From the IMG/VR virus record IMGVR_UViG_638341087_000014, positions 1-34,255 of that record: a DNA stretch of 34,255 bases. The stretch is one strand, 5' to 3'. Below, piece after piece: positions 4,684 through 34,255 of this stretch. The translations under genes and the position numbers were made by a program. Every line of letters begins with the position of its first letter. The stretch's first letter is position 1. A model generated the notes under the pieces. That model worked only from the letters and a program-made list of their open reading frames with translations, did not search any database and was not told the DNA's origin. This DNA is from a virus. Lineage: Duplodnaviria; Heunggongvirae; Uroviricota; Caudoviricetes.

Positions 4684-4760
4684 GGCCCTTTAGCTCAGTT
4701 GGTCAGAGCGAGCGACTCATAATCGCCAGGTCGCTGGTTCAAGTCCAGCAAGGGCCACCA
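4684..4760 (+). tRNA. tRNA with CAU anticodon, ileX-like (tRNA-Ile2, lysidine type), often auto-annotated as tRNA-Met
   Basis: 77 nt cloverleaf folded by hand: acceptor GGCCCTT/AAGGGCC, T-arm GCTGG-TTCAAGT-CCAGC, anticodon loop CTCATAA, 3' CCA encoded. Confidence 0.8.
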
Positions 4761-4761
4761 G

Positions 4762-4838
4762 CCGCCACTAGCTCATCCGGATAGAGCATCAACCTTCTAA
4801 GTTGATGGTGCGAGGTTCGAGTCCTCGGTGGCGGGCCA
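4762..4838 (+). tRNA. tRNA-Arg (anticodon UCU)
   Basis: 77 nt: acceptor CCGCCAC/GTGGCGG, anticodon stem-loop TCAAC-CTTCTAA-GTTGA, T-arm CGAGG-TTCGAGT-CCTCG, CCA encoded. 5' end could shift by 1 nt. Confidence 0.8.
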
Positions 4839-4840
4839 GT

Positions 4841-4916
<76 letters not shown>

Positions 4917-4919
4917 TAT

Positions 4920-4994
<75 letters not shown>

Positions 4995-5246
4995 GAGCGA
5001 GATAGGTAGTTTTTTGGCACTGACACATTTTATGTAGGGCGTTTTTCCTGACTCCTTACCTCGCCCTGTACTGTAATGAGTGATATCGGTTGCAGTACCA
5101 GTGCTGTTTTTTACGCCACCGGAATGGTGCATTATTGGTAGAGATTTGCAATGTCTCTGGCAGGGGCCGGTGATGCATCATCCCGATGTTGTAAACATCG
5201 CTCAGATAACGTTGAAATCAATCAAACCCAGGAAATACATCTTTAA

Positions 5247-5270
5247 CCGCCGCACCAGGCGGTTTTTTTT
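5247..5270 (+). terminator. Intrinsic terminator downstream of the tRNA cluster
   Basis: CCGCC-GCACCA-GGCGG stem-loop followed by an 8-T run. Confidence 0.55.
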
Positions 5271-5646
5271 ATTCTTAATTCGAAGAAAAAGAAAACACGG
5301 ACATTGATAATGTCCGCGTGGCAATGCCATGTAAGTTAGCGATGAATATGGCGCAAAAAAAAGCGCGGCCGTCGGATTAACGCCGCGGGACAAAGTCCGT
5401 GAAGAATCATAAGCATCTGTCTCCTCCGGGAGACGAGTTGATATTACTAAGCTTTAAAAATGGTTTAAATCCTCAGATTAACCTTAATTTTCGGTAAGTC
5501 TTATTTCATTTCTTCGCGCCACGCCCGGCGCACATCAAAAAACCACAGAGCCTTTCAGGGGTGAGCTTACGGGATGGTCAGTGTGACTTTCTCTGTGGGC
5601 TGGTCACCCCCGGGCGCAGGCTCACCCACTAAAAGGAAAAGTCACG

Positions 5647-6072
5647 ATGTTTGGTATTTTCAAAAAGAAAACCCGCAAGGCCATTACCGAAGTGAAGAAG
5701 ATGGAGAACCGCGACGCAGTGGAGGCGACCGTCTGGGGCGCGTATTCCATTGCATATGCTGACGGCACCTGCGATGCGAAAGAAATCGCTGTGCTGGAGA
5801 AAACCATTGCAGCACTTCCTGCTTTTGCGCCGTTCTCGGGTGAGATTGCACAAATGAGTGCAAATATCCGCGCCCGTTATGAAGCGTCGCCGCGCTCTGC
5901 CAATGCTGAAGCCCTTCGCCAGCTGGCTGATGTTGCCGGTACTGATGATGCAGTTAATGTACTGTGCCTGTGTCTGGATATCGCAGACCAGGATGGCATT
6001 GGTCCGGATGAAGAAGCGCAGCTCAAGAAAATTGCTCAGGCGCTGCAGTTACCGCTGGAGCAGTACCTGTGA
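5647..6072 (+). CDS. TerB-like (tellurite-resistance TerB family) domain protein, 141 aa
   Basis: Pattern resembling TerB (two helical repeats with conserved AxxDG...EE/DEE, e.g. SIAYADGTCDAKEIAVLEK and LDIADQDGIGPDEEAQLKKIAQAL); AAAAGGAAAAG before ATG 5647. Family call from remembered pattern, not a search. Confidence 0.6.
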   Translation: MFGIFKKKTRKAITEVKKMENRDAVEATVWGAYSIAYADGTCDAKEIAVLEKTIAALPAFAPFSGEIAQMSANIRARYEASPRSANAEALRQLADVAGTDDAVNVLCLCLDIADQDGIGPDEEAQLKKIAQALQLPLEQYL

Positions 6073-6221
6073 AAAGTGCGCGCCTTGTGCTGGCTGCCAT
6101 CCTGCTGTTTCTGGTAGTGGCGGTGGATTTCACCGGACGGCTGATGTCGGTGCTGGCAGATGGTGTGCTGGTGGCGATGGCGCTGGTCGTGCTCCGGCCT
6201 TTACTGCGTAAATCTGAATAA
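6069..6221 (+). CDS. Candidate small membrane protein (50 aa, two hydrophobic segments), start overlapping the TerB-like stop (GTGA)
   Basis: Translation from GTG 6069: MKSARLVLAAILLFLVVAVDFTGRLMSVLADGVLVAMALVVLRPLLRKSE; below the 60-aa cut-off of the ORF track; ends just before a hairpin and terminator. Confidence 0.3.
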   Translation: MKSARLVLAAILLFLVVAVDFTGRLMSVLADGVLVAMALVVLRPLLRKSE

Positions 6222-6269
6222 CACCACACAAAAGGCATCTGCGGGTGCCTTTAACGGGGTGTTTTTTAC

Positions 6270-6296
6270 GGGCCGCTGGTGGCCCTTTTTTATTTA
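6270..6296 (+). terminator. Intrinsic terminator immediately upstream of the lysis genes
   Basis: GGGCC-GCTGGT-GGCCC stem-loop followed by TTTTTTTATTT; the holin ribosome-binding site follows directly. Confidence 0.6.
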
Positions 6297-6310
6297 CAGG
6301 AGAAAAAAGT

Positions 6311-6703
6311 ATGTCTGAACCCTTATCCGGTTCCGGCACGGCTGCGGCGCTCGGTGGGGCGACGGTGTACGGGCTGTTTACCGGAACGGATTTCGGGATT
6401 GTGTTTGGTGCGTTCGCCGGGGCGTTATTTGTGGCAACGATGCCGCAGGCGCTTTCAGCCTGGCGTGTGGCGGCGCATTTTCTGGTGTCGTTCATTATCG
6501 GCGTGCTGGGCGCAGAGGTTCTGGCATCCTGGCTGGTAAAGCATACAGAGTTTGACGGTGCACCTGTCGACGCATTGTGTGCAGTACTGGTGTCAGTGGT
6601 GTCGGTGAAGATTCTCTCGTTCATCCACCAGCAGGATATTGCATCGCTGGTGTCCGGCCTGTTCTCCCGCCTGCGGGGTGGAGGAGGCGGCAATGTTAAG
6701 TAA
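6311..6703 (+). CDS. Putative holin (three predicted TM segments)
   Basis: 130 aa, AGGAGA before ATG 6311, three hydrophobic helices, first gene of a cassette ending in an endolysin. Confidence 0.55.
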   Translation: MSEPLSGSGTAAALGGATVYGLFTGTDFGIVFGAFAGALFVATMPQALSAWRVAAHFLVSFIIGVLGAEVLASWLVKHTEFDGAPVDALCAVLVSVVSVKILSFIHQQDIASLVSGLFSRLRGGGGGNVK

Positions 6704-6968
6704 CCTTCCCGGATTACTGAATGTGGCGTTATGCACGGTTATCGTGCTGACGCTCTTTTTTTATCGTCGCCGTGATTCCAGGCATAAACCGCTGATGTCA
6801 TGGCTGGCCTGGTTGCTGATGCTGCTGTATGCCTTTGCGCCCCTCAGCTATCTGTGTGGTCGCCCGTTAGCAACGGGCTGGCTGGAAGTGTTTTTTAATC
6901 TGTTGTTCTGCGTGCTGGTAATACGCGCACGCGGGAACGTCGCAAGAATCTTTCCATTGTTGAGGTGA
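6693..6968 (+). CDS. Putative second holin / holin-associated membrane protein
   Basis: 91 aa, three hydrophobic segments, GGAGGAGG before ATG 6693, overlaps the previous gene by 11 nt, directly upstream of the endolysin. Confidence 0.45.
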   Translation: MLSNLPGLLNVALCTVIVLTLFFYRRRDSRHKPLMSWLAWLLMLLYAFAPLSYLCGRPLATGWLEVFFNLLFCVLVIRARGNVARIFPLLR

Positions 6969-6970
6969 AT

Positions 6971-7348
6971 ATGTCGGGTAAATTCAGATTTAGTCGTCGC
7001 AGTGAAAAAAATCTGGAGGGCGTTAAACCACAGCTGGTTGCTGTCGTTCGCCGTGCGCTGGAGCTGACGGAGGTTGATTTCGGTATTACGGAAGGGCTGC
7101 GCACGAAAGAACGCCAGAAACAGCTGGTCGCGGAAGGGAAAAGCCAGACCATGAACAGCCGCCACCTGACCGGTGATGCGGTGGATGTTGTTGCCTGGGT
7201 TGGCAGCCAGGTGTCATGGGACTGGCCTCTGTACGAGAAAATCGCGCAGGCATTTAAGCAGGCTGCCGCAGAGCTGGGAACCGCCATCGAATGGGGCGGG
7301 GACTGGAAAACACTGAAAGACGGGCCTCACTTTCAGTTGAAACGCTGA
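6971..7348 (+). CDS. Endolysin, peptidase M15 family (L-alanyl-D-glutamate peptidase type)
   Basis: 125 aa; zinc-peptidase motifs SRHLTGDAVD and GGDWKTLKDGPHFQ; GAGGTG before ATG 6971. Confidence 0.8.
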   Translation: MSGKFRFSRRSEKNLEGVKPQLVAVVRRALELTEVDFGITEGLRTKERQKQLVAEGKSQTMNSRHLTGDAVDVVAWVGSQVSWDWPLYEKIAQAFKQAAAELGTAIEWGGDWKTLKDGPHFQLKR

Positions 7349-7362
7349 TAACCAGGTGGGTT

Positions 7363-7545
7363 ATGAGCAGAAAACACTGGACACACAGAATGCCGCGAAC
7401 GGCGGCGAAATGGGCGCTGGTAGCGATACTGGTGCCTTTTTTATTGGTGGGATGCGTCAGCCTGGATAAGGCGCGCCTGTTTTTTGACGCTGCTTCTCAG
7501 GCCTGCCAGTTGATTGATGGCATCCGGCAGTGTACGCAGAACTGA
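7363..7545 (+). CDS. Small lipoprotein, possible o-spanin (Rz1-like)
   Basis: 60 aa; signal peptide with lipobox LLVGC, short mature part; sits at the end of the lysis cassette. No partner i-spanin identified. Confidence 0.4.
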   Translation: MSRKHWTHRMPRTAAKWALVAILVPFLLVGCVSLDKARLFFDAASQACQLIDGIRQCTQN

Positions 7546-7716
7546 TCGCAGGTAAGAGCAGAATATTTTGCTGAAAAATGAGGGGTGCGTCAGCGCACGG
7601 AAAGCATGAAATTCTGCGTTTGTGGTTATTCAATAAAATAAATTCTTTCTATCGCCGCGAATACTCAAATGTTGATCAGTGCCCGGTGCGGCGACAGGCT
7701 TTGATATCAGGAGACG

Positions 7717-8115
7717 ATGATGGAAAAAACAGAAAACAAACCGATTGCAATTGGTGCTGATGCTGCTCCGTTTAAGTTTGAGTTGTCTCAACTGGTGGAG
7801 ATGCGCATCAGTGATGAATGGGGTGAGGTTAAAGCCCGCGCGCAGTATGCGGATGGCGAAAACCAGTACTTGATCCACTACAAGGCAGCTGACGGTCGCG
7901 CCACGACGGAGTGGTTTGGTGAGTCAATGCTGGAAGCAACAGAAGATGATCGTCATCCAGGTTGTCCGGTATTTGCCGGTATGAAATTACCGGAAGGCGC
8001 AGTGGTTGAGCTGCAGCCGGGTGAGATGTTCGTAATGACAGACATCATTGATGGTAAACCGCAGTATTCGCGTATTGAAATGAATGATAAGAGTGCTCGC
8101 CTGATTCGTGAGTAA
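7717..8115 (+). CDS. Hypothetical protein (132 aa), family not recognised
   Basis: Clean ORF with CAGGAGACG before tandem ATGs (7717/7720); no TM or signal peptide; between the lysis cassette and cos. Confidence 0.6.
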   Translation: MMEKTENKPIAIGADAAPFKFELSQLVEMRISDEWGEVKARAQYADGENQYLIHYKAADGRATTEWFGESMLEATEDDRHPGCPVFAGMKLPEGAVVELQPGEMFVMTDIIDGKPQYSRIEMNDKSARLIRE

Positions 8116-8122
8116 CAGGCAT

Positions 8123-8160
8123 TACAGCAGTCCTTCACTCTAAGGGGCTGCTGTAATGTG
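8123..8160 (+). other. Stable hairpin (11-bp perfect stem) just after the 7717-8115 stop
   Basis: CATTACAGCAG ... CTGCTGTAATG inverted repeat; no U-tract on either strand. Confidence 0.4.
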
Positions 8161-8482
8161 AGAAATAAAAAACCGGTCACAGGGAGCAGCTACACAGAAC
8201 CGGCCGGCGAAGACCGCCAATACCACTCATGCATTGATGCAACATACTAATGACAATAGCCGCTATTGATGTAAATGCAACGTTATGCATCAACGAAAAT
8301 AAAAAACCGGCAGGGGAAATCCATTGAAGATTTGCCGGTGGCAAAAGAGGGCCATGTTTTTAACCTTAGTCGCAGAGTTACGGAGTGCAACTACGAATGC
8401 TGCCGGTATATGGCTGAATGGCGTTTCAATGATGTACGTCATCTTATCTGTAAATGTTAATGATAAACGCTCCCATTTGTGC

Positions 8483-11349: not shown

Positions 11350-12917
11350 ACGGGGAACTGGTGGACCTTCACGGGCAGCCACTGCGGCAGAGTATGGGGT
11401 ATTCCGGAGGGGGTACCGGATTTGGCGGGCAGCTTGCGGAATGGATGCCTGCACCGGAAAGCGCCGATGTGGCGCTCTTACCTTCCATTCAGCTGGGTAA
11501 CGCCCGTGCGGATGATCTGGTCCGCAATAACGGTATTGCCGCAAACGCCGTTGAAATTCATAAAGACCATATCGTCGGACACATGTTTCGTCTGAGTTAC
11601 CGGCCCAACTGGCGCTGGCTGGGGATGTCGGAAGCCGATTCACATGCCTTTATTGAAGATGTGGAGGCGGCGTGGATGGAATTCTGCGATCCGGTGTTTG
11701 GTTCGATGGATGTGGAGGGGCGTCGCTCGTTTACCGAATTTATTCGTGAAGGGGTGGGCGTTCATACATTTAACGGTGAAATTTTTGTCCAGCCCGTATG
11801 GGATACGGAATCCACGTCATTATTCCGGACGAAATTCAAAACCATCAGCCCGAAACGTGTCAGTACACCCGGTTATGGTACCGGCGATCGTTTTATGCGT
11901 GCCGGGGTGGAAATCAACCGGTACGGAAAAGCACTGGCCTACCATGTTCAGGAAGATGACTGGCCCGGTTACGGTGTCAGCAACTGGACGCGGATTGCGG
12001 CGACGCTGCCCTCCGGGCGACCGGGAATGATCCATGTGTTTCAGCCGCAGGAGGACGGGCAGACGCGCGGGGCCAACCAGTTTTATTCTGTCATGGAGCG
12101 CCTCAAGATGCTCGACACACTGCAGGCCACGCAATTGCAGTCGGCGGTGGTGCGGGCGATGTATGCCGCGACGATTGAATCCACGCTGGATTCGGAAAAA
12201 GCATTTGAATATATCGCCGGGGTGGGAGATGGCGGTAAAAATCCCCTGAACACCATCATGAAAGGCTACGCGCGTTATTACGCCACCAATACGGTAAAGC
12301 TGGGCGGGGTCCGTATTCCGCATCTTTATCCGGGGGATTCACTGAATCTGCAGACAGCGCAGAATGCAGATAATGGTTTCTCTGAACTGGAAAAGGCGCT
12401 GTTACGTTACATCGCTGCCGGACTGGGGGTGTCCTATGAACAGCTTTCCCGTGATTATTCACAGGTCAGTTATTCCAGTGCCAGGGCATCCGCCAATGAG
12501 TCGTGGCGGTATTTTATGGGCAAACGAAAATTTGTGGCCAGCCGGCTGGCATCACAGATGTTTGCCTGCTGGCTGGAGGAAGCTCTTATTCGCGGTGTGA
12601 TCCGCCCGCCGAAATCCCGTTTTTCATTCTGGGAGGCCCGTTCCGGATGGTGTCGTGCCGAGTGGATTGGTGCCGGTCGCATGGCGATTGATGGCCTTAA
12701 GGAAGTGCAGGAAGCGGTGATGCGTATTGAAGGTGGTTTAAGCACGTACGAGAAAGAGCTGGCCCTGATGGGCGATGACTATCAGGAGATTTTCCGCCAG
12801 CAACTGCGTGAAAGCCAGGAGCGACAGGCAGCGGGTCTTCCCCGCCCCATCTGGATAAAGGACACGTTTGTGCAGCAGATCCGACAGACAACGGGAGAAA
12901 AAGGCGATGCGTCGTAA
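11346..12917 (+). CDS. Portal protein (lambda gpB-like)
   Basis: 523 aa colinear with lambda B (GGGTGFGGQ, DGQTRGANQFYSVMERLKMLDTLQ, LLRYIAAGLGVSYEQLSRDY); GTG start overlaps the W stop, AGGAG upstream. Confidence 0.95.
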   Translation: MNGELVDLHGQPLRQSMGYSGGGTGFGGQLAEWMPAPESADVALLPSIQLGNARADDLVRNNGIAANAVEIHKDHIVGHMFRLSYRPNWRWLGMSEADSHAFIEDVEAAWMEFCDPVFGSMDVEGRRSFTEFIREGVGVHTFNGEIFVQPVWDTESTSLFRTKFKTISPKRVSTPGYGTGDRFMRAGVEINRYGKALAYHVQEDDWPGYGVSNWTRIAATLPSGRPGMIHVFQPQEDGQTRGANQFYSVMERLKMLDTLQATQLQSAVVRAMYAATIESTLDSEKAFEYIAGVGDGGKNPLNTIMKGYARYYATNTVKLGGVRIPHLYPGDSLNLQTAQNADNGFSELEKALLRYIAAGLGVSYEQLSRDYSQVSYSSARASANESWRYFMGKRKFVASRLASQMFACWLEEALIRGVIRPPKSRFSFWEARSGWCRAEWIGAGRMAIDGLKEVQEAVMRIEGGLSTYEKELALMGDDYQEIFRQQLRESQERQAAGLPRPIWIKDTFVQQIRQTTGEKGDAS

Positions 12918-19968: not shown

Positions 19969-20551
19969 CGATATCAGGAGCATACTGCCGGTCAGTGCCA
20001 GCCGGGCAGAGCGGGTGGTGGACTGTGTCGCCGGAGATATGCTGTCAGACATAGCGGTCTGCCTGATCCGCTATGTGAAAAATCCCGATTTATGTCCTGC
20101 TGAATTGCTGCCATGGCTGGCTTGGGAAATGGCGGTGGATACCTGGAATGAACACTGGACGGAGACGGAAAAAAGGTCTGCGATAAAACGTGCTGCTTAC
20201 ATCCACCGCCACAGAGGGACTAAAGCGGCGCTGATGGCATCGCTGGCTGACAGTCCCTTCCGGTCGCAGATTGTTGAGTGGTATGAGCAGACCCCACCCG
20301 GGGAGCCGTATACCTTTCGTCTGAACGTGGAGCAGAAGGATTTACCGGTGCTGATGAATGATCATCAGGATCTGAAGCATGCGGTGCTCCGTGCCAAAAA
20401 TCTGCGCAGCTGGTTCAGTATTCACGTTTACGGGAACAGCACAGGGCGTGGATTTGGTTACGGCTATGTGATGGCGACAGAAAAAATCAGAAGTACCGGT
20501 GTGACAACAAAGACAGTGCCCACAGGCGGGCAGAGTGAGGCAGGTGTATGA
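19961..20551 (+). CDS. Tail/baseplate protein I (P2 gpI-like)
   Basis: 196 aa in the position and with the overall pattern of P2 gpI; start overlaps the J-like stop. Confidence 0.8.
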   Translation: MNDDIRSILPVSASRAERVVDCVAGDMLSDIAVCLIRYVKNPDLCPAELLPWLAWEMAVDTWNEHWTETEKRSAIKRAAYIHRHRGTKAALMASLADSPFRSQIVEWYEQTPPGEPYTFRLNVEQKDLPVLMNDHQDLKHAVLRAKNLRSWFSIHVYGNSTGRGFGYGYVMATEKIRSTGVTTKTVPTGGQSEAGV

Positions 20552-21933
20552 ATGGACTGATTCTGACAACGTCCGGCGCTGCAGAAATTGAAGCAGCATA
20601 TCAGAACGGGCAAATCGTGACCGTCCGGCATGTTCTGCTTGGTGACGGGGGCGGGCGGGCATTGCCATCCACGCCGGATGAAATGGCAGCAATGACATCG
20701 TTGTACGGCGAATTCGGGCAGGAACCCTTTTCCGACGGTGCGGTGGAGGAGGGCTTCATCAGCGGGGATATTGTGATTGACTGTAAATCATACCCCGGTA
20801 AAACCCTTCGTGAACTGGGGATGATCAGCGACAGAGGTACGCTTATCGCGTACGGACGTTATCCGGACACCTTTTTACCAGACCAGACGGACTCCGTTAT
20901 CAAGGAAGTTATTCTGACGCTGGTTCTTGGACTGACGCACGCACAAAACGTGGTGCTGGAAGTTGATCCGGACAGGGCCATTATTACTCAGGAAATCGGA
21001 GACAGACGCTATCTGCAACGAAAAAAGAATCTTTCGGATGTGGAAGACAAGGATGAGGCTGTTGAAAGCCTCGGATTAAAACCTACGGTGGACAAGGCAA
21101 AAAATGCCGTTCAGCGTGATGGTGACACCATGACCGGGGAACTGAAAATCCGTGGTGTTAATGCGCTGAGGATTTTCAACGAAGCCTTTGGTCTGATTTT
21201 TCGTCGTTCGGAAGAGTGCCTGCACCTTATCCCTACCAGTGAAGGTCAGGGCGAGAATGGCGATATTGGTCCACTTCGACCGTTCACTATTAATCTGCGG
21301 ACGGGTGAAATATCCATGTCGCATAAAGTGTCTGTTGGCGGCGGTTCTCAGGTCAATGGTGCGCTGGGTATCGGCGTTCAGAACGCGCTGGGCGGAAACT
21401 CAATTGCTTTCGGGGATAACGATACAGGTATAAAACAAAACGGTGACGGCATTCTGGATGTTTATGCGAATGGGCAGCATGTATTTCGTTTCCAGAATGG
21501 TGTGGCGATAGCGTTAAAAAATATTCAGGCCGGAAATGCTAAAAAATTCACGTTATCCAGCGCCAACAACTCCACGAAAAACGCAACGTTTAATTTATGG
21601 GGCAATTCATCCCGCCCTGTAGTTGCAGAGCTTGGTGATGATTCTGGCTGGCATTTTTACAGTCAAAGGAATACGGATAACAGCATAACGTTCGCTGTAA
21701 ACGGGCAGATGGTTCCATCAAACTACGGAAACTTTGATGCCCGCTATCAGACCAAAACAGGCGGTGTGCAGGATGTGCGTCTGGGAAGCGCCATTGGTAT
21801 TGGACGCGGGGGAAATGCGCCATCAGGTCACCTTATCAGCGGTCTTGACGGTGGTGAAAGTATGGACTGGGCCAATGCCCGCCCGGTGCAGGTTCTGATT
21901 AATGGGGTCTGGCGGAATGTAGCGAGTTTGTAA
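20548..21933 (+). CDS. Tail fibre protein (P2 gpH position; N-terminal tail-collar-type domain)
   Basis: 461 aa after the I-like gene; N-terminal domain typical of myovirus tail fibres, Gly/Asn-rich distal part; followed by an assembly chaperone gene. Confidence 0.75.
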   Translation: MNGLILTTSGAAEIEAAYQNGQIVTVRHVLLGDGGGRALPSTPDEMAAMTSLYGEFGQEPFSDGAVEEGFISGDIVIDCKSYPGKTLRELGMISDRGTLIAYGRYPDTFLPDQTDSVIKEVILTLVLGLTHAQNVVLEVDPDRAIITQEIGDRRYLQRKKNLSDVEDKDEAVESLGLKPTVDKAKNAVQRDGDTMTGELKIRGVNALRIFNEAFGLIFRRSEECLHLIPTSEGQGENGDIGPLRPFTINLRTGEISMSHKVSVGGGSQVNGALGIGVQNALGGNSIAFGDNDTGIKQNGDGILDVYANGQHVFRFQNGVAIALKNIQAGNAKKFTLSSANNSTKNATFNLWGNSSRPVVAELGDDSGWHFYSQRNTDNSITFAVNGQMVPSNYGNFDARYQTKTGGVQDVRLGSAIGIGRGGNAPSGHLISGLDGGESMDWANARPVQVLINGVWRNVASL

Positions 21934-21935
21934 TT

Positions 21936-22481
21936 ATGATGCACTTAAAAAATATTACGGCACAAAACCCTAAAACAATTGAGCAATATCAGCTGGCGCG
22001 ACAGCATAAATTTTTATTGTGGCTGTTCTCCGATGATGGTCAGGAATGGCACGAAGCCCAGGAAAAATTTCAGCCAGACACTCTGAAAGTTATTTATGTT
22101 GAAACTGGCGAGGTGGTCTGGGTCGGAAAAGACATCACCTCAATCTGCCCGGAAAATAAAAGCGTGATTGAGCTACCGGATATTACCGCCAATCGTCGCA
22201 TTGAGGCGTCGGGTTACTGGTTCTACCGCAATGATGCATTTGTTTTTGACTACAAACTTAAAGCGGAAGACGAGCGTGATGCACTGTTAAAACAGGTCAG
22301 CATCATGACCAGCGAATGGGAAAAAGACCTGCTGCTGGGATTAATCAGTGACGAAGACAGGGAGAAGCTGAAAGCGTACCGCATTTACGCGAAATCGCTG
22401 CAGGCGATGGATTTCAGCGCTATTACGGATAAGACCACTTACAACAATATTAGCTGGCCTGAGCAGCCACAAAATACCTGA
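21936..22481 (+). CDS. Tail fibre assembly chaperone (Tfa, P2 gpG position)
   Basis: 181 aa immediately after the fibre gene, with the usual acidic, W/Y-containing profile. Confidence 0.7.
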   Translation: MMHLKNITAQNPKTIEQYQLARQHKFLLWLFSDDGQEWHEAQEKFQPDTLKVIYVETGEVVWVGKDITSICPENKSVIELPDITANRRIEASGYWFYRNDAFVFDYKLKAEDERDALLKQVSIMTSEWEKDLLLGLISDEDREKLKAYRIYAKSLQAMDFSAITDKTTYNNISWPEQPQNT

Positions 22482-28445: not shown

Positions 28446-31400
28446 ATGTCTGTATTAATTTCGGGTGTGCTGACGGATGGCACGGGACTCCCCATGTCCG
28501 GATACCATATTATTCTGAAAGCCCGACAGAATACATCCGCAGTGGTCATGAGAACGGTGGCAACAGTGGTGACGGGGCCGGCCGGAGAATATGCATTTGA
28601 GGCTCAGACCGGAAGATATGACGTTTATCTTCGGTCGTGTATTGAAAGAGAATATTGTGTTGGTGACATTTCGGTTTACGACGATTCAAAGCCCGGCACA
28701 CTGAATGATTTTCTGACCGCTCTCGATGAAGGCGACCTCAAACCCGACGTGGTGAAACGCTTTGAGGAAATGGTGGCACAGGCGCAGCAGAGCGCCGAAG
28801 CCGCAGCGGAAAGCGAGCAGCAGGCCGGGCAACATGTCGCTGATGCGCAACAAATCAAGAGCGACTGCGAGACGCTGGCGGATAACGTACAGCAGAACGC
28901 AGAGGCCGTTACCGAAGATAAAAAGCAGGTGGCACAGCTGGCATCATCTGCCACACAGGATGCCGCCCGGGCAGAACAGGCGGTCAAAGATGCCGATAAG
29001 ATAGTCCAGAAAGCGGTCGATAAACTTGCTGATGCCGCAACGCTGACCGGTGAGGCAAAAGCCAGCGCCGAAGCGGCAGCAAAAAGCGAGCAGAGCGCGA
29101 AACAGCACAGGGACGAGGCGCAACGGATAGTTGATGACCTGAAGGGAACCAACGCCAGCACGACGCAAAAAGGCCTGGTGCAACTCTGTAGTGATACAGA
29201 CAACGACAGCGAAGAACTGGCCGCCACGCCAAAAGCCGTCAAAACCGTCATGGACGAGACGAAAACAAAAGCGCCACTGGACAGCCCGGCATTCATCGGC
29301 ACGCCCACCACACCAACCCCGCCGGACGATGCGACCGGGCTGGAGATGGCGAACGCGGCATTTGTTCGCAAACTGCTTGCTGCGCTGGTTGACTCGTCAC
29401 CGGAAGCCCTGGACACACTGAACGAGCTGGCAGCTGCGCTGGGCAATGACCCGGAGTTTGCGACAACAATCATGAACGCGCTGGCGGGTAAACAACCACT
29501 CAGCGACGTGTTAACCGCAATCAGTAATCTGGAAGAACGGGCAGATAATCTTCTGTGCTTTAATCAGGACGGGAATGCTTCGCTGTCTCCACTGTCAGAA
29601 AAAGCCCGGTCACTGCTGGCACAGGCCACAGTGGAAGCCATGCGCACGGAGCTTGAGCTGAAAAGCGCGGCGGTAAAGGACATTCAGACAGACCTTTACG
29701 ACAGCACGGAAGGCCGTGTTGCGCTACCAGGTGCATTTGGTTACGGAATGACGGACGCCGGAGCAAGTTCAATTATTGCCCGCGATATGGCGACCATAGC
29801 CAAAAGTGCGCATAACCTGCACCCGGGACGGTATTACACCTTTTCCACACAAACGGAAGAGACGACCGGAATAACAGAAATTATCTGGCTGGATAATGGC
29901 TGGGACGACAAAACCAGCCAGACAGCAACAAAGCTGGTTCTGTTTTTTGGAAAAGACGGACGGATCCTTATGACCGTTCGTGGCGATAATATCTCCGCTC
30001 CGGTCACCTGGACGAATCTGACGCCACAACTGGGCAATGCAGCACAGAAGGATGCGCAGGAGAATATTTACGACCGCACCGAAGGCCGACTGGCGATTCC
30101 TGGCATGTTCGGGTTCGGGAAAATATTTGGCCACGAAGACAGAGTAGAGTTCAGAACGCGTTCAGCATTACTGGCGTGGGCAAAAACAGCGAAGCCGGGG
30201 AGGTATCATTGTTTTGGTGACATTAAAGACCTCATTCCAGGTTTGCCACAGATCTACGGGATTATTGAAGTAATCTGGCCCTATGACTCTACAGGAAGCG
30301 CCGTTGAAAATGTTAGCAAAACACTGATTTACAATGCTGGTCGCAACCTTTTTTTAAGTACGTATGTACCTACCGGAGATGGATGGCTTACTGACTGGGA
30401 GAACCTGAAGGTTGATGAGGCCTCACTCAGAGCGCTGATTGAAACCCGCGCACCGCTGAAAAGCCCGGCACTGACCGGAACACCGTCCACGCCAACACCG
30501 CCGGATGATGCAGCAGGTAATGAAATAGCCAATGCGGCGTTTGTCCGCAAACTGCTCGCTGCGCTGGTTGGCTCATCACCGGAAGCTCTCGACACGCTGA
30601 ACGAACTGGCAGCGGCGCTGGGCAATGACCCGAACTTTGCGACAACGGTAACTAAAGCACTGGCAGGTAAACAGCCGCTTAATGACGTGTTAACGGCTGT
30701 CAGCCAGATAACACCGGAAGAAAACACGCTGCCTTATTTCAGTTCAGAGGGCCGGATTTTACTGGCGCAGCTGTCAGAAAAAGCCCGCGCATTACTGGCG
30801 CTGGACACGCCTGAGGCCATGCGCACGGAGCTTGAACTGAAAGCGGCTGCGACGATGGAACCCCAGAGCGATATCCGCGACCGCACACCGGGCAGGCTGG
30901 CACTGTCCGGCATGCATGGATTTGGTCAGGCATTTACCAGCACTGAAGCCCTGGCGTTTGAGGGACTGTCTGATTTCGTTGAATGGCTGAAGAAAGTCAC
31001 GCCGGGGCGGTATGCGGTCAGTATTACTGATTCATCACAACTGCTTACCGGTACCACGCAATTTAACGGCATTATTGACGTGATGTGGTCCCCGTACGCC
31101 AACAGTGAATCTGACACAGTCCGCAAATTTAAAACCCTGATGTGTTACAACCAGTATTATCAGGGTGAACACTGTATTCACTATATGCAGTACCGGTACA
31201 ACGACAGCGATAACAGCTGGAACATGTCATCGCGGGTAGTTGTCTACGACGGAGATTCACTGGCGTACCTGTTGTCCAGGATGGCGGGCTCAGGCTCATA
31301 TTTCAAATACCCGGCAGTGGGTGTTCCGGTGCTGGCTGTTTATCGCGGAACAACTTCCGGGGATAAAGAAATCAAAATTGGCCTGGGTGATGTGGTGCAG

Positions 31401-31586
31401 GGGTCACAACTGGGCGGAGTTAATCTTTCGTGCACAATATCTTCTGCCGGGCCTGGCTCTTACGGTTCAACACCAAGTGCAGGAGCAACAGGGTACACTT
31501 TTCCGGGGCGTTATATGGCGTTATCCGGGGTCAGGGACTCTTACGGAACAAGCGGTCGTATCTGCCTGTTTGTGCGCATCGAGTAA
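28446..31586 (+). CDS. Large tail fibre protein (lambda Stf-type N-terminus, Ala-rich coiled coil, duplicated collar-repeat modules)
   Basis: 1046 aa; prophage tail-fibre-type N-terminus; two copies of the fibre repeat (SPAFIGTPTTPTPPDD...ANAAFVRKLLAAL...LNELAAALGNDP); three TEGR/PGRY-containing distal domains. Confidence 0.85.
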   Translation: MSVLISGVLTDGTGLPMSGYHIILKARQNTSAVVMRTVATVVTGPAGEYAFEAQTGRYDVYLRSCIEREYCVGDISVYDDSKPGTLNDFLTALDEGDLKPDVVKRFEEMVAQAQQSAEAAAESEQQAGQHVADAQQIKSDCETLADNVQQNAEAVTEDKKQVAQLASSATQDAARAEQAVKDADKIVQKAVDKLADAATLTGEAKASAEAAAKSEQSAKQHRDEAQRIVDDLKGTNASTTQKGLVQLCSDTDNDSEELAATPKAVKTVMDETKTKAPLDSPAFIGTPTTPTPPDDATGLEMANAAFVRKLLAALVDSSPEALDTLNELAAALGNDPEFATTIMNALAGKQPLSDVLTAISNLEERADNLLCFNQDGNASLSPLSEKARSLLAQATVEAMRTELELKSAAVKDIQTDLYDSTEGRVALPGAFGYGMTDAGASSIIARDMATIAKSAHNLHPGRYYTFSTQTEETTGITEIIWLDNGWDDKTSQTATKLVLFFGKDGRILMTVRGDNISAPVTWTNLTPQLGNAAQKDAQENIYDRTEGRLAIPGMFGFGKIFGHEDRVEFRTRSALLAWAKTAKPGRYHCFGDIKDLIPGLPQIYGIIEVIWPYDSTGSAVENVSKTLIYNAGRNLFLSTYVPTGDGWLTDWENLKVDEASLRALIETRAPLKSPALTGTPSTPTPPDDAAGNEIANAAFVRKLLAALVGSSPEALDTLNELAAALGNDPNFATTVTKALAGKQPLNDVLTAVSQITPEENTLPYFSSEGRILLAQLSEKARALLALDTPEAMRTELELKAAATMEPQSDIRDRTPGRLALSGMHGFGQAFTSTEALAFEGLSDFVEWLKKVTPGRYAVSITDSSQLLTGTTQFNGIIDVMWSPYANSESDTVRKFKTLMCYNQYYQGEHCIHYMQYRYNDSDNSWNMSSRVVVYDGDSLAYLLSRMAGSGSYFKYPAVGVPVLAVYRGTTSGDKEIKIGLGDVVQGSQLGGVNLSCTISSAGPGSYGSTPSAGATGYTFPGRYMALSGVRDSYGTSGRICLFVRIE

Positions 31587-31599
31587 CGGGGAATAAAAC

Positions 31600-32178
31600 A
31601 TGAAAATCAGAGCGGTAAAAGGCATCAGAAACGCGCATTATCTTGAAAATGGCGCGGTTGACTGCGAGGTGTTATTTGAAGGTGAAACGGAATTCGTCCC
31701 GTATACCGCCATGCAGGATGATACCGCCCCGACAGGCCAGCGCATCTGGGGAGGGTTACAGAGCGGCAAATGGGGTGAAATCGCCCCGTTCAACGTCACG
31801 CCGGAACTTATCGCGGCAGCAAAGGAGGCCAAAAAACGGGAAATCGAGCTCTGGCGCACAGAACAGGAAGCGCAGCCGTTCACGTTTGAATGGAACGGTC
31901 GCACCTGGAATGCTGGCCCAGACTCACTGGCCCGTCTCTATCCGGTGGTAATGGCTGCAAAATCTGATACGGCACGAACCGCCCTTGCGTGGGGCGACGC
32001 TGATAATCAACAGGTGAAACTGTCGATGCAGGAACTTGAAGAACTGGCGGCAGCACTGGCGCAGGCGCAGGTCAATCGCAACGACGAGATTTATCGTCGA
32101 CAGCGGGAGATGAAAGAAGAACTGAATAACTTGGATGATTTGCGCTCAATTAGAGCGATTGCAATTAACAGTAATTAG
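31600..32178 (+). CDS. Tail fibre assembly chaperone (Tfa)
   Basis: 192 aa directly after the large fibre gene; its C-terminal coding sequence is duplicated as a remnant at 33581-33658. Confidence 0.8.
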   Translation: MKIRAVKGIRNAHYLENGAVDCEVLFEGETEFVPYTAMQDDTAPTGQRIWGGLQSGKWGEIAPFNVTPELIAAAKEAKKREIELWRTEQEAQPFTFEWNGRTWNAGPDSLARLYPVVMAAKSDTARTALAWGDADNQQVKLSMQELEELAAALAQAQVNRNDEIYRRQREMKEELNNLDDLRSIRAIAINSN

Positions 32179-32216
32179 CTCAGAAAATGCAAATAACAAG
32201 TTGTCATATCATAGAG

Positions 32217-32240
32217 TAGTGAGGGGGGCGCCCCTCACTA
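32217..32240 (+). terminator. Strong hairpin between convergent genes (possible bidirectional terminator)
   Basis: Perfect 10-bp stem TAGTGAGGGG / CCCCTCACTA around a GC core, followed on + by TTTATT; lies 5 nt beyond the stop of the minus-strand gene. Confidence 0.5.
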
Positions 32241-32244
32241 TTTA

Positions 32245-32790
32245 TTACCACCAGCTATCAGCTTTACTCTCTCGTGCTTTTCCCTCACTTTGCAACAATT
32301 CTTTGGTACCAGTTGAAATATTACGCCGAGCATCCGCTTCTGATTGAATAACGTCAGTTTGTGCAGCCCGCTCCTTGAGTTCTTGGTCCAGAAAATCGTT
32401 TGCTCTATTTACCCTGGCCCTTTTAGCTTCGAGTTCGAGTTTTCGGTTTTCTAGCTCAAGTTGGCGTAATTGATCTTCATAATCTTGATCGCGTTTTTTA
32501 TCTGCCGCCATCTCCGCTTCGAGCTTAGCTTTACGCTCAAACTCAGCCGCTCGTCGTTGTTTTTCTTTTGCTGCTGCCATAGCCGCTGCTTTCTCTTTGC
32601 GAATCCTTTCCGCATTGGCACGTTGGCGCTCTTGTTCTTTACGTGCATCTTCAATACGTTTTTCTTCGGCTTTACCTTCATTTTCGGCTTGCGCAATAGC
32701 CGCTAATTGTTCCTGTAAAGAAGACGCGTTAACGTAAAAAGTGCTTAGGCACGGCAAAGCTAATAGTATATATAAAGCAAGACGTGTCAT
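32245..32790 (-). CDS. Secreted, highly charged coiled-coil protein (TolA-domain-II-like K/E/A/R-rich helix)
   Basis: 181 aa; N-terminal signal peptide (MTRLALYILLALPCLSTFYVNA), then a low-complexity charged helix; AT-rich codon usage unlike the phage structural genes. Confidence 0.6.
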   Translation of the reverse strand: MTRLALYILLALPCLSTFYVNASSLQEQLAAIAQAENEGKAEEKRIEDARKEQERQRANAERIRKEKAAAMAAAKEKQRRAAEFERKAKLEAEMAADKKRDQDYEDQLRQLELENRKLELEAKRARVNRANDFLDQELKERAAQTDVIQSEADARRNISTGTKELLQSEGKARESKADSWW

Positions 32791-32802
32791 CTGAAATGGC
32801 CA

Positions 32803-33315
32803 TTATTTATTATCAGGGCATGTTGCATTTGGTTGAATACGTGTTTCGTTTTCTTTAGTTGAAATCATGGCTGCTAATCCAGGCGCAAATTGGCAAGTTC
32901 TACCAACTTGAGTCGATGTATAAACTTTTGTACCTTCTTTGTATGTTAGAGAAACGCCTTCAACAATTGTTTTATCTTTGACTAATGAACCAGCGGCTGC
33001 ACCAAGTGCGGTTCCACCTACAGCCCCTGCGGTGGTTGCCAGTTTCGAACCACTTTTGGTGTTATGTCCAATTACTCCTCCAGCAACGGCACCAACTACA
33101 GCACCGAATGTTTGTGCTGCTTCTTTATTCTCTTTGTTGTCCACAGCAATTTTTGCAGGAAGAACCGAAATGATAGTTATCATTTTGGTTTCTTGTTTGG
33201 AATTAACCTGAGTGGTGTCATAAACATCTGCAGCAAGATGTTCTGCAGTAGACTGACACCCACTTAATACAAAGGCAGCTAATAAAGAAATGGTTGCTTT
33301 ATTTAATTTCAACAT
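32803..33315 (-). CDS. Outer-membrane lipoprotein, SlyB/PCP-like (glycine-zipper)
   Basis: 170 aa; lipobox LSGC; Gly-zipper GAVVGAVAGGVIGH...GAVGGTALGAAAG and overall SlyB-like pattern; AT-rich; 12 bp upstream of the coiled-coil gene on the same strand. Confidence 0.7.
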   Translation of the reverse strand: MLKLNKATISLLAAFVLSGCQSTAEHLAADVYDTTQVNSKQETKMITIISVLPAKIAVDNKENKEAAQTFGAVVGAVAGGVIGHNTKSGSKLATTAGAVGGTALGAAAGSLVKDKTIVEGVSLTYKEGTKVYTSTQVGRTCQFAPGLAAMISTKENETRIQPNATCPDNK

Positions 33316-33580
33316 TTTACTTGCTCTCCTAGTTTCTGAGAAACTGCAAATATATTTACCTGAGCTTTTGTGTCAATATTTTTTTGGTTGTTTTGTTGTC
33401 TTTAATCAAAAAAGTATCCTGCTCATATAGTTCTGTTTAGTGTTTTTATGTTTTTTAATGAATTTTATAAATAGCTGAATTTATTGATATCAATATATAA
33501 ACTTATCGTGCATACATTGCCAAAAATACAGTTTCAGAAGGGGGGCTGGTTGTTGTTGGGGGCAATGTTATCAGTGGGAA

Positions 33581-33658
33581 ATGCAGGATGAACTGAATAA
33601 TCTGGATGATTTACGCTCAATCAGAGAGATGACGATTAGCGGCAATCACGCTCGATAA
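33581..33658 (+). pseudogene. Remnant 3' end of a tail fibre assembly (tfa) gene
   Basis: Encodes MQDELNNLDDLRSIREMTISGNHAR, matching the C-terminus of the Tfa at 31600-32178; 33590-33626 is a near-identical direct repeat of 32119-32155. Confidence 0.5.
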
Positions 33659-33662
33659 AATT

Positions 33663-33688
33663 AACCCCGGTGATCATCCGGGGTTTTG
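33663..33688 (+). terminator. Hairpin terminator between the tfa remnant and the convergent antirepressor-like gene
   Basis: AACCCCGG-TGATCAT-CCGGGGTT stem-loop followed by TTTTG. Confidence 0.55.
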
Positions 33689-33694
33689 CATTCA

Positions 33695-34255
33695 TTAAAA
33701 CCGCATCAACCGTTCCACCAGTTGTTCTTTATGGGCAACGATCCAGCCGCGTTGTTCCAGATAAAATTTGAACCGTTCCAGAGTGCATACCATCGCATCG
33801 GCGGGGACTTTTTCCGTGAACTCGACCTGACCGTGTTTATCGAAGTGGATCAGTAATGCGAATCCATCATTTTTGGTGGCGGAGTTTTGTGCTGCTGGTG
33901 GTTGTTTTTGGCTGAAATAACAGCCTTCGAGTTTTTCGAACACTTCCCACGCCTGATCGGTTTCGAGCATTTTTGCGTGGCGGGCTGCGCCACGTTCTGT
34001 CCAGAGGATGAGGTGCTTTGTACGCGGTGCAACTAAGTTACTTTGAGTAACCTTGTTCTTAAATTCCCGCAACTCAGCTCCTTCCAATTTGAAGTAGTGT
34101 TTCCCACAAACAAAACGCTCGGCATTGCGTGTATAGTTCACTTTGATGTTATTAGTTTCGGTGCCATAAAGTTGTGCCAAAAGCTCGGTAGTAATGACAG
34201 GGATTTGGTTATGGGGGAGCGGGGAAAGAGTTTCAACTGAGATTTGAATAGCCAC
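33695..34255 (-). CDS. Antirepressor-like protein (ORF6N/ORF6C-type), possibly truncated at the window edge
   Basis: 186 aa with an N-terminal region resembling ORF6N-type phage antirepressors; the ORF begins with GTG at the last three bases of the window, so the true start may lie beyond it. Confidence 0.5.
   Translation of the reverse strand: MAIQISVETLSPLPHNQIPVITTELLAQLYGTETNNIKVNYTRNAERFVCGKHYFKLEGAELREFKNKVTQSNLVAPRTKHLILWTERGAARHAKMLETDQAWEVFEKLEGCYFSQKQPPAAQNSATKNDGFALLIHFDKHGQVEFTEKVPADAMVCTLERFKFYLEQRGWIVAHKEQLVERLMRF

Follow-up and report, generated by a model that had tools for sequence, protein, structure and literature searches.

SlyB (PDB 7ojf/7ojg) is a PhoPQ-regulated outer-membrane lipoprotein that forms rings around outer-membrane proteins and lipid patches. 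A related lipoprotein of Escherichia coli, YfgH, fractionates with the outer membrane and has been modelled as SlyB-like rings (10.64898/2025.12.22.696046). The same study reported that the deletion of yfgH caused sensitivity to sodium dodecyl sulfate/ethylenediaminetetraacetic acid, higher permeability and destabilised outer-membrane proteins, and that its overexpression rescued the depletion of outer-membrane biogenesis genes. The deletion phenotype was suppressed by mutations in clsA, whereas the suppressors of slyB lie in the Mla pathway. Furthermore, the genetic interactions between yfgH and lptD were aggravating (PMC3219608). In K-12-type chromosomes the gene order is guaA, yfgI, yfgH, yfgG, and the operon yfgH-yfgI is known as srgI-srgL in Salmonella Typhi. 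The srgIL genes were regulated by SdiA and acyl-homoserine lactones, whereas an E. coli yfgHI reporter was not SdiA-regulated in the same study (PMC11619404). Here, we describe a diverged, phage-borne copy of this conserved envelope operon, which is carried as ordinary prophage cargo (a "moron") in the virus record IMGVR_UViG_638341087_000014. The whole stretch of 34,255 nucleotides was analysed and is called the window below.

The families of the cassette are already catalogued, and the copy of this phage-borne paralogue in phage P7 is already annotated. The P7 proteins Upf50.5 and Upf50.0 were the closest phage relatives of the window's YfgH-like and YfgI-like proteins, with identities of 71% and 72%, respectively, the same gene order and a sister position in the trees. 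The signal peptides of the P7 pair and its similarity to K-12 proteins had been recorded by the GenBank depositors. In P7, a phage-plasmid, the pair is bordered by the LPsit tail operon and the immI region, whereas the cassette of the window follows the tail fibres of an integrated lambdoid prophage. In the literature, neither "DUF5384" nor the names of the P7 genes were found in any paper, and the P7 pair is without a published function.

Composition and Signals of the Cassette

The initial annotation, made from the letters of the window, had described a compact, AT-rich block of two minus-strand genes downstream of the last tail gene. Both open reading frames were present exactly as claimed (32803-33315, 170 amino acids, and 32245-32790, 181 amino acids); they are separated by 12 nt and are oriented opposite to the late genes. 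The guanine-plus-cytosine (GC) content of the block at 32179-33570 was 40.3%, compared with 52.6% for positions 1-32178, in agreement with the claimed compositional shift. Among all 1392-bp segments of the window (mean GC 0.523, standard deviation 0.034), the lowest 12 of 12 overlapped the block, which was the lowest-GC 1.4 kb in the window, about 3.5 standard deviations under the mean. The AT-richness of the region upstream of the lipoprotein gene was likewise borne out (Table 1), and no complete E. coli genome except that of strain 52F4 covered this region.

The core of the predicted promoter (ATTGACA..AAATATATTT) was also found upstream of the Salmonella prophage copy of the pair. At the other end, the palindrome between the convergent tfa and yfgI-like genes had folding energies of −22.5 kcal/mol on the plus strand and −17.3 kcal/mol on the minus strand, with z values of −4.8 and −3.0, respectively. 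Besides the two terminator palindromes, the repeat search inside the block returned only short, chance-like matches, and no Rfam RNA family was found within 32000-33800 at E ≤ 1. Judged by these predicted signals, the cassette would be a self-contained transcription unit in the order terminator, sigma-70-type promoter, two genes and terminator. It is assigned to prophage cargo because of its lowest GC content, its promoter-like site, its flanking hairpins, its opposite orientation, its absence from the related prophage of strain UMNF18 and its presence at other sites.

The YfgH-like Lipoprotein

The first gene of the cassette encodes a protein with the lipobox LSGC at residues 17-20, and the residue at +2 is Q (non-Asp). 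Cys20 was invariant among 45 homologues, and the mature lipoprotein has about 150 residues. Within residues 61-115, 13 G/A-xxx-G/A motifs were counted, and the glycine-zipper 2TM domain PF05433 was matched with 26.9 bits (Pfam cut-off 24.2). The sequence matched SlyB (PDB 7ojf) over residues 11-162 with E 1.2e-9, and in the Foldseek search SlyB was the only significant structural match (E 2.4e-8, TM 0.71). The architecture of SlyB, with a lipid anchor, a beta strand, a glycine-zipper hairpin and a beta domain, is common to both proteins, although the identity in the structural alignment was only 26% and SlyB has no YfgI-type partner gene. The identity to K-12 YfgH was 68%. By sequence and predicted fold, the protein is therefore best described as a full-length SlyB homologue and, more precisely, as a member of the YfgH family, which refines the SlyB-like assignment made at first.

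In the C-terminal beta domain, C141 and C166 were invariant in the 45 YfgH-family sequences, which suggests a conserved periplasmic disulfide. In addition, PHROG 1277 (E 1.4e-91) calls the YfgH-like family "DNA methyltransferase", as do several RefSeq phage records, namely NC_050152 (upf50.5 of P7), NC_042128, NC_031129 and NC_019445. On a SlyB-type lipoprotein, this label looks like a propagated annotation error.

The YfgI-like Helical Protein

The second protein matched PF17358 (DUF5384) with 142.7 bits against a cut-off of 25, and residues 42-181 were aligned to positions 5-145 of the 145-position profile. Its identity to K-12 YfgI was 48%. By inspection, a cleavable Sec signal peptide of the A-x-A type was recognised, MTRLALYILLALPCLSTFYVNA/SSLQ (..FYVNA/SS); the motif is kept in the alignment, and a sig_peptide feature is annotated in the P7 homologue. 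The mature protein consists of 45% D/E/K/R and 18% Ala, and AlphaFold2 predicted one continuous helix over residues 2-180, with a mean predicted local distance difference test (pLDDT) of 86.7. The charged, signal-peptide-bearing helix of the initial annotation was accordingly recovered. The accompanying term "TolA-like" found support in the composition only, and no TolA family or PDB chain was matched. In all tests, the protein behaved as a YfgI/DUF5384 member and not as a TolA relative.

In distant members of the family, conservation was confined to the C-terminal 85 residues or so. The N-terminal half, charged and rich in K/E/A/R, varied in length and sequence and offered few hydrophobic residues for a coiled-coil core. 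Such a pattern would suit a protein made of a spacer and a docking domain.

Relation to the Host Operon

In a blastn-level search, 5420 of 5426 complete E. coli genomes had a chromosomal yfgI-yfgH relative with about 69% nucleotide identity, and its genes are annotated as yfgI (DUF5384) and yfgH (glycine-zipper lipoprotein). Because of this chromosomal match and the identities to the K-12 proteins, the cassette is regarded as a diverged copy of the host operon yfgH-yfgI. Both families, their order, the short spacing, the lipobox, the signal peptide and the glycine zipper are shared by the two loci, and the region upstream of E. coli yfgH-yfgI has a GC content of about 30%, as in the cassette. 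On the other hand, the cassette lies in a prophage and not beside guaA, it falls in a separate mobile clade in both trees, and the promoter regions are unrelated; the GC content of the cassette is also lower (40-45% compared with 47-49%). The initial annotation had treated the genes as an anonymous envelope pair. Envelope cargo was the right category, and the pair is in fact a paralogue of a host core operon. Overall, that interpretation was partly supported, being right in kind (envelope cargo with a recombination scar) and imprecise in identity.

The association of the two genes was surveyed with profiles of both families in 80 species-representative loci, which span Enterobacterales, Pseudomonas, Pasteurellaceae, Vibrionaceae, Aeromonadales and a few beta- and alphaproteobacteria. 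A YfgH-type open reading frame stood directly upstream of the DUF5384 gene, on the same strand, in 79 of them. Seventy-four of the paired loci passed the strict gap criterion, and in the other five the stop-to-stop yfgI frame extended back over yfgH; the sole unpaired locus was a 336-bp contig. No tfa, stf or ORF6N gene was found within 5 kb in any of the 80 loci, and the family is therefore basically chromosomal. The neighbor-joining trees of the YfgH-type and YfgI-type proteins were congruent. Accordingly to this genomic pattern, YfgI (DUF5384) is an obligate partner of YfgH, and the two genes would work as a unit.

The partnership seems unexplored in the literature, and yfgI has no occurrence in the recent YfgH study (10.64898/2025.12.22.696046). 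A Dub-seq mention of yfgH was set aside as a neighbour artefact of yfgG, and in the paper on phage S144 yfgH/yfgI occur only in an appendix table of genomic regions.

Mobile Copies and Selection

The mobile copies formed one clade in the neighbor-joining trees of both proteins, apart from the chromosomal yfgHI of Escherichia. Their nearest chromosomal relatives were found at a locus with the order ldhA, hslJ, the pair and ydbK. The P1-like carriers of the pair comprised phage P7 (upf50.5/upf50.0), RCS47, SJ46, JL22 and about 184 P1-like plasmids. In Salmonella prophages, the order stf, tfa(DUF4376), pair and ORF6N gene was the same as in the window, with 78% nucleotide identity. The pair occupied at least four further chromosomal sites, in prophages or islands. 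Other E. coli prophages carried it at the aspS/yecD site, at the aceK/iclR site and probably near pphA, and a further copy lay in an island rich in insertion sequences. Two tail types were represented among the pair-carrying prophages, P2-like contractile (loci L006-L023) and lambda-like (L024); the latter, an E. coli prophage, had a lambda-type J-lom-stf-tfa tail.

Compared with the copies of E. coli, Salmonella and P7, the ratio of nonsynonymous to synonymous substitution (dN/dS) was 0.03-0.11 for both genes, over synonymous distances (dS) reaching more than 2. By this substitution pattern, both genes are functional and under purifying selection. The prophage-borne pair was rare among complete E. 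coli genomes (1 of 5426, strain 52F4 only). In the wider assembly collection, the exact protein was found in 106 blocks, and a lipoprotein variant (P0064), 90% identical to the window's YfgH-like protein, was found in 245 blocks. A megablast search of the block against the phage collection gave no match for the cassette, and the P7-type relatives appeared only at the blastn level.

Phage TL-2011b (JQ011317) was considered as a further carrier and rejected, since the last 3.5 kb or so of the record (4804-8337 of locus L003) were 99.2% identical to the K-12 chromosome. The end of this "complete phage genome" consists of the 3' side of guaA followed by yfgI, yfgH, yfgG and pdeF, and its "phage" yfgHI are the host's own.

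In the other E. coli prophages of loci L019-L024, the pair was the last gene set before the host junction. Several GTCCCA / ATGCCCCA repeats were observed about 200-300 nt upstream of the lipoprotein gene in these prophages, and they could be integrase arm sites.

Recombination Scar and Mosaic History

The initial annotation had placed the cassette between near-identical copies of the tfa 3' end, at 32119-32155 and 33590-33626. The repeat is real, with 33 of 37 positions matching, so that "near-identical" was slightly generous, and the right-hand copy proved longer than claimed and is followed by its own terminator at 33663-33685. In 526 of the 5426 complete E. coli genomes, the 3' end of tfa matched the stretch 33571-33657 with 93-95% identity.

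The comparison with related prophages was informative. At the same ompW site, the prophage of strain UMNF18 lacks the pair, and tfa, the hairpin terminator and a rha gene follow in immediate succession. The last 90 nt or so of the UMNF18 tfa matched the window twice, at about 32098-32188 (84%) and at 33571-33661 (93%). The first alignment spanned 29489-32188 at 84% identity, tail fibre included (the identity of the tfa genes was also 84%), and the second ran on through the terminator into the regulator gene. Pair-less relatives thus have tfa, terminator and regulator in a row, and the second tfa end of the window is, on this comparison, a real recombination scar, with a remnant and not a second intact gene. 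The remnant keeps an in-frame ATG, and 33582-33659 could encode a 25-amino-acid peptide (MQDELNNLDDLRSIREMTISGNHAR), which is probably not expressed.

A scar of recombination was therefore rightly recognised at the outset, and the simple insertion into tfa that had been proposed was not borne out. Replacement is favoured because four other prophage contexts carry the pair after an intact stf-tfa(DUF4376) module without a tfa remnant. The simplest reading is that a module of stf, tfa and the pair replaced the resident stf-tfa end, and that the right crossover would have fallen inside the old tfa, leaving its 3' end and terminator behind.

A recombination breakpoint was also detected inside the lipoprotein gene. 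With the other E. coli prophage copies, the 3' third of this gene and the whole yfgI-like gene shared 97-100% identity, whereas the 5' two-thirds of the lipoprotein gene shared only 77-87%. Compared with locus L023, dS was 0.45 for the yfgH-like and 0.07 for the yfgI-like gene. The promoter region was also exchanged, because the homology to the other prophage copies ends one base before the ATG.

Prophage Context and Feature Coordinates

Positions 12179 to 34255 of the window matched a lambdoid prophage of the calf isolate E. coli 52F4 with 99.9% identity; collinearity holds only from 12179 onward, and the upstream sequence differs. The 52F4 prophage sits at ompW, adjoining yciE and the trp operon. 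Its order is int/xis, cI/cro, replication genes, holin/holin/M15-endolysin, a lambda-like head and a P2-like contractile tail, and its end is formed by a second, Stf-like tail fibre (28446-31586) and the DUF4376 assembly gene (31600-32178). The yfgH/yfgI-like cassette lies between this last late gene and the ORF6N antirepressor-like gene. The features of the locus are listed in Table 1.

Table 1. Features at and around the cassette in the window, in order of position.
Feature	Position	Strand	Basis
Tail-fibre assembly gene (DUF4376), intact; last late gene, holds the left repeat copy	31600..32178	+	Pfam DUF4376 59.5 bits; PHROG 1141 tail fiber protein
Perfect 10+10 palindrome, probable bidirectional terminator between the convergent tfa and yfgI-like genes	32217..32240	.	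Inverted repeat; terminator-like match on +
yfgI-like gene (DUF5384): signal peptide, then helix of about 159 residues	32245..32790	-	Pfam PF17358, identity, AlphaFold2
yfgH-like outer-membrane lipoprotein gene (SlyB family; glycine-zipper helical hairpin and C-terminal beta domain)	32803..33315	-	Lipobox, Pfam, SlyB match by sequence and fold
Recombination breakpoint inside the lipoprotein gene	32975..33000	.	60-nt identity profiles against L019-L024
AT-rich upstream region, specific to this prophage lineage	33316..33570	-	30.2% GC; homology to other prophage copies stops before the ATG
Sigma-70-like promoter, TTGACA-16-TATATT, predicted	33376..33349	-	11/12 consensus; about 35 nt upstream of the lipoprotein ATG
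tfa remnant: last 29 or so codons and stop of a different tfa allele; recombination scar	33571..33657	+	93% to UMNF18 tfa (L005 6001-6091)
Hairpin terminator, follows tfa in pair-less relatives; parts the ORF6N gene from the cassette	33663..33685	.	Terminator-like match; −14.6 and −14.3 kcal/mol; same sequence after UMNF18 tfa
ORF6N-domain antirepressor-like gene, outside the cassette; last phage gene before attR/ompW'	33695..34255	-	PF10543 74.2 bits; PHROG 2379 anti-repressor; 52F4 annotation

Several further observations were made on the prophage. The ORF6N antirepressor-like protein had weak matches (E 1.7e-9 to 2.8e-6) to the PADLOC candidate defence family PDC-S05, and a Rha-family gene occupies its position in pair-less relatives. 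Four clustered tRNA genes (Met-CAT, Arg-TCT, Thr-TGT and Gly-TCC) were found at 4684-4994, upstream of the lysis region; of these, only Thr and Gly are annotated in the 52F4 prophage, which also has an ISEc12 insertion missing from the window. When the 52F4 annotation was mapped on the window, two tail-fibre sets were seen, at about 20550-22480 (P2-type tail-collar fibre and assembly protein) and at 28446-32178 (lambda-Stf-type fibre and DUF4376 assembly protein). The side-tail-fibre gene of the second set (1046 amino acids) contains an internal duplication of about 390 nt, with repeats at about 29271-29663 and 30450-30842, and the motif "...SPA..GTP.TPTPPDDA.G.E.ANAAFVRKLLAALV.SSPEALDTLNELAAALGNDP..." is present twice in the protein. 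Among related prophages, the length of the side tail fibre ranges from 602 to 1089 amino acids.

Proposed Function of the Cassette

The most likely role of the cassette, held with moderate confidence, is the reinforcement of the outer membrane of the lysogen by a YfgH-like ring and a YfgI-like periplasmic partner. The host RNA polymerase would transcribe the cassette in the lysogen, independently of the late operon on the other strand. After export, the YfgH-like protein would receive its lipid at Cys20, and Lol would carry it to the outer membrane, since the residue at +2 is not Asp. Its glycine-zipper hairpin would insert in the outer membrane and oligomerise to rings, as in the homologues SlyB and YfgH, and these rings may corral outer-membrane proteins and aberrant lipid patches. 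These steps, from export to ring formation, we infer by homology. The YfgI-like protein would be exported with its cleavable signal peptide and would form a helical rod of about 24 nm, whose conserved C-terminal 85 residues or so may dock on the YfgH-like assembly, with the variable charged N-terminal half as a putative periplasmic spacer. Overall, the lysogen would have more of an outer-membrane stabilising module, or would have it under different regulation. Such lysogenic conversion may lead to robustness towards detergent, bile, chelators, antimicrobials and possibly serum, and, as a by-product, the accessibility of outer-membrane receptors may change.

Several points weigh against this role. 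Expression in the lysogen was deduced from predicted signals only, and the contact between YfgH and YfgI from synteny only. The total of promoter-like sites in the region was not above the shuffle expectation, and the sigma-70 site is a consensus match only; moreover, H-NS could silence a region of 30% GC. The monomer model of the lipoprotein was poor in the zipper, where residues 66-113 had pLDDT values under 50. The host has a yfgHI of its own, and the benefit of a second copy with 48-68% identity is not obvious. YfgI has no known biochemical function, and nalidixic-acid sensitivity is its only reported phenotype (PMC3536626). Finally, the constant position by receptor-binding genes and in the P1 sim slot suits superinfection exclusion at least equally.

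In superinfection exclusion, the YfgH-like rings and their YfgI-like partner would enclose or immobilise the receptor of the adjacent side tail fibre or of competing phages, or would block the passage of DNA through the envelope. The lysogen would then be protected, and its progeny would not be lost on the debris of lysed cells. This explanation, the main rival, is less likely than reinforcement, and its evidence is suggestive but mainly one of position. In every chromosomal prophage context seen, with either tail type, the pair came directly after the receptor-binding module stf-tfa(DUF4376). The known exclusion lipoproteins Llp of T5 and Cor of phi80 and N15 also adjoin receptor-binding genes. 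Like lambda bor and lom, llp and cor encode small envelope proteins; all of them lie beside genes for tails or receptor binding, have a promoter of their own and deviate in GC content. They are single genes of unrelated families, whereas the cassette is a two-gene unit copied from a conserved bacterial operon; in one related prophage (L024), lom stands two genes upstream of the pair.

Furthermore, the P7-type pair and the superimmunity genes simC-simB-simA of P1 share one genomic slot, between LPsit/pmgC and Oc4-c4-icd-ant, and the same orientation (1434-2718 of P1, NC_005856, L108, versus 5004-6068 of P7, L002). Both units encode exported envelope proteins from their own promoters. Eight variable, low-GC regions are recognised in P1-like phage-plasmids, and this slot is among them (PMC9603915). 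In addition, SlyB rings enclose BamA, according to the title of PDB 7ojf, and YfgH was reported to interact with multiple outer-membrane proteins (10.64898/2025.12.22.696046). However, slots by att sites and immunity regions gather all kinds of cargo, so position is weak evidence. The equivalence with simABC is positional only, with no detectable sequence or profile similarity, and the profiles of both families showed no homology to SimC (hhalign probability <1%). Neither protein matched a PADLOC defence model, and in 80 non-phage contexts the chromosomal orthologues serve as housekeeping genes of the envelope.

An extended form of exclusion is that phages repeatedly captured a host SlyB-type module for corralling outer-membrane proteins, with YfgH as ring and YfgI as rod, and repurposed it for receptor shielding. 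This is unlikely too; it would explain why the pair accompanies the stf/tfa module of lambdoid and P2-tailed prophages and why, in P7-type phage-plasmids, it stands in place of simABC.

Virulence conversion of the TraT/Bor kind, in which the lipoprotein would give serum or complement resistance or surface exclusion of conjugation, is improbable. TraT, the surface-exclusion and serum-resistance protein of the F plasmid, is also a ring-forming outer-membrane lipoprotein, and the source strains are animal and human isolates. The similarity to the TraT family PF05818 was weak (E 1.6e-5), and its 25.3 bits fell under the Pfam cut-off of 31. TraT decamer structures took ranks 3-4 in the fold search, but with E 0.25-0.35 and TM 0.21-0.27 they were not significant, SlyB being the only structure that was. 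Membership in the TraT family was thus rejected as sub-threshold in both sequence and fold, and the obligate YfgI partner would be left unexplained.

It is quite improbable that the pair is a neutral hitch-hiker, linked to the stf-tfa module without a selected function in the phage. Its rarity (1 of 5426 complete E. coli genomes) and its mosaic history would fit such a passenger, but both reading frames are intact at the low dN/dS given above, and the pair stays together in three phage lineages and two host genera.

A TolA mimic, in which the secreted helix would compete with TolA domain II and block Tol-dependent uptake of colicins or filamentous phages, is very improbable: it draws on the composition of a long periplasmic helix rich in Ala/Lys/Glu, whereas no TolA Pfam family was found at E ≤ 0.1 and the PDB sequence search gave no TolA chain at E ≤ 1, conservation lies in the last 85 residues of DUF5384 and not in the charged spacer, the cleavable signal peptide leaves no inner-membrane anchor, and YfgI is always paired with YfgH. 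A two-component spanin or a structural gene is the least probable of all and was rejected as close to refuted: an outer-membrane lipoprotein beside a helical periplasmic protein resembles a spanin (periplasmic coiled coil and outer-membrane lipoprotein) superficially, but the holin/holin/M15-endolysin cassette is about 25 kb away (about 6250-7760), the lipoprotein gene comes first and both genes oppose the late-gene strand, the mature lipoprotein, unlike a small o-spanin, has about 150 residues and is homologous to SlyB, the helix protein has a cleavable signal peptide in place of the uncleaved N-terminal transmembrane anchor of an i-spanin, the widespread orthologues are chromosomal in the 80 non-phage loci, and the pair is missing from related, functional-looking prophages.

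Implications

At least three lineages of phages or mobile elements have acquired a core envelope operon of the host, and purifying selection has preserved it in them. According to PMC11619404, yfgHI orthologues are missing from S. Typhimurium, and a Typhimurium source name is attached to the Salmonella prophage copy P0004; if both are true, the prophage would hold the only copy there. The genomic partnership of yfgI with yfgH, together with the absence of yfgI from the recent work on YfgH, means that the pair deserves joint study. Its place beside receptor-binding genes, or in the P1 sim slot, offers a test of whether SlyB-type rings affect phage entry. If the repurposed capture were true, it would be a new mechanism of exclusion, in which a receptor is enclosed in a lipoprotein ring rather than plugged, and it would give YfgI/DUF5384 its first function.

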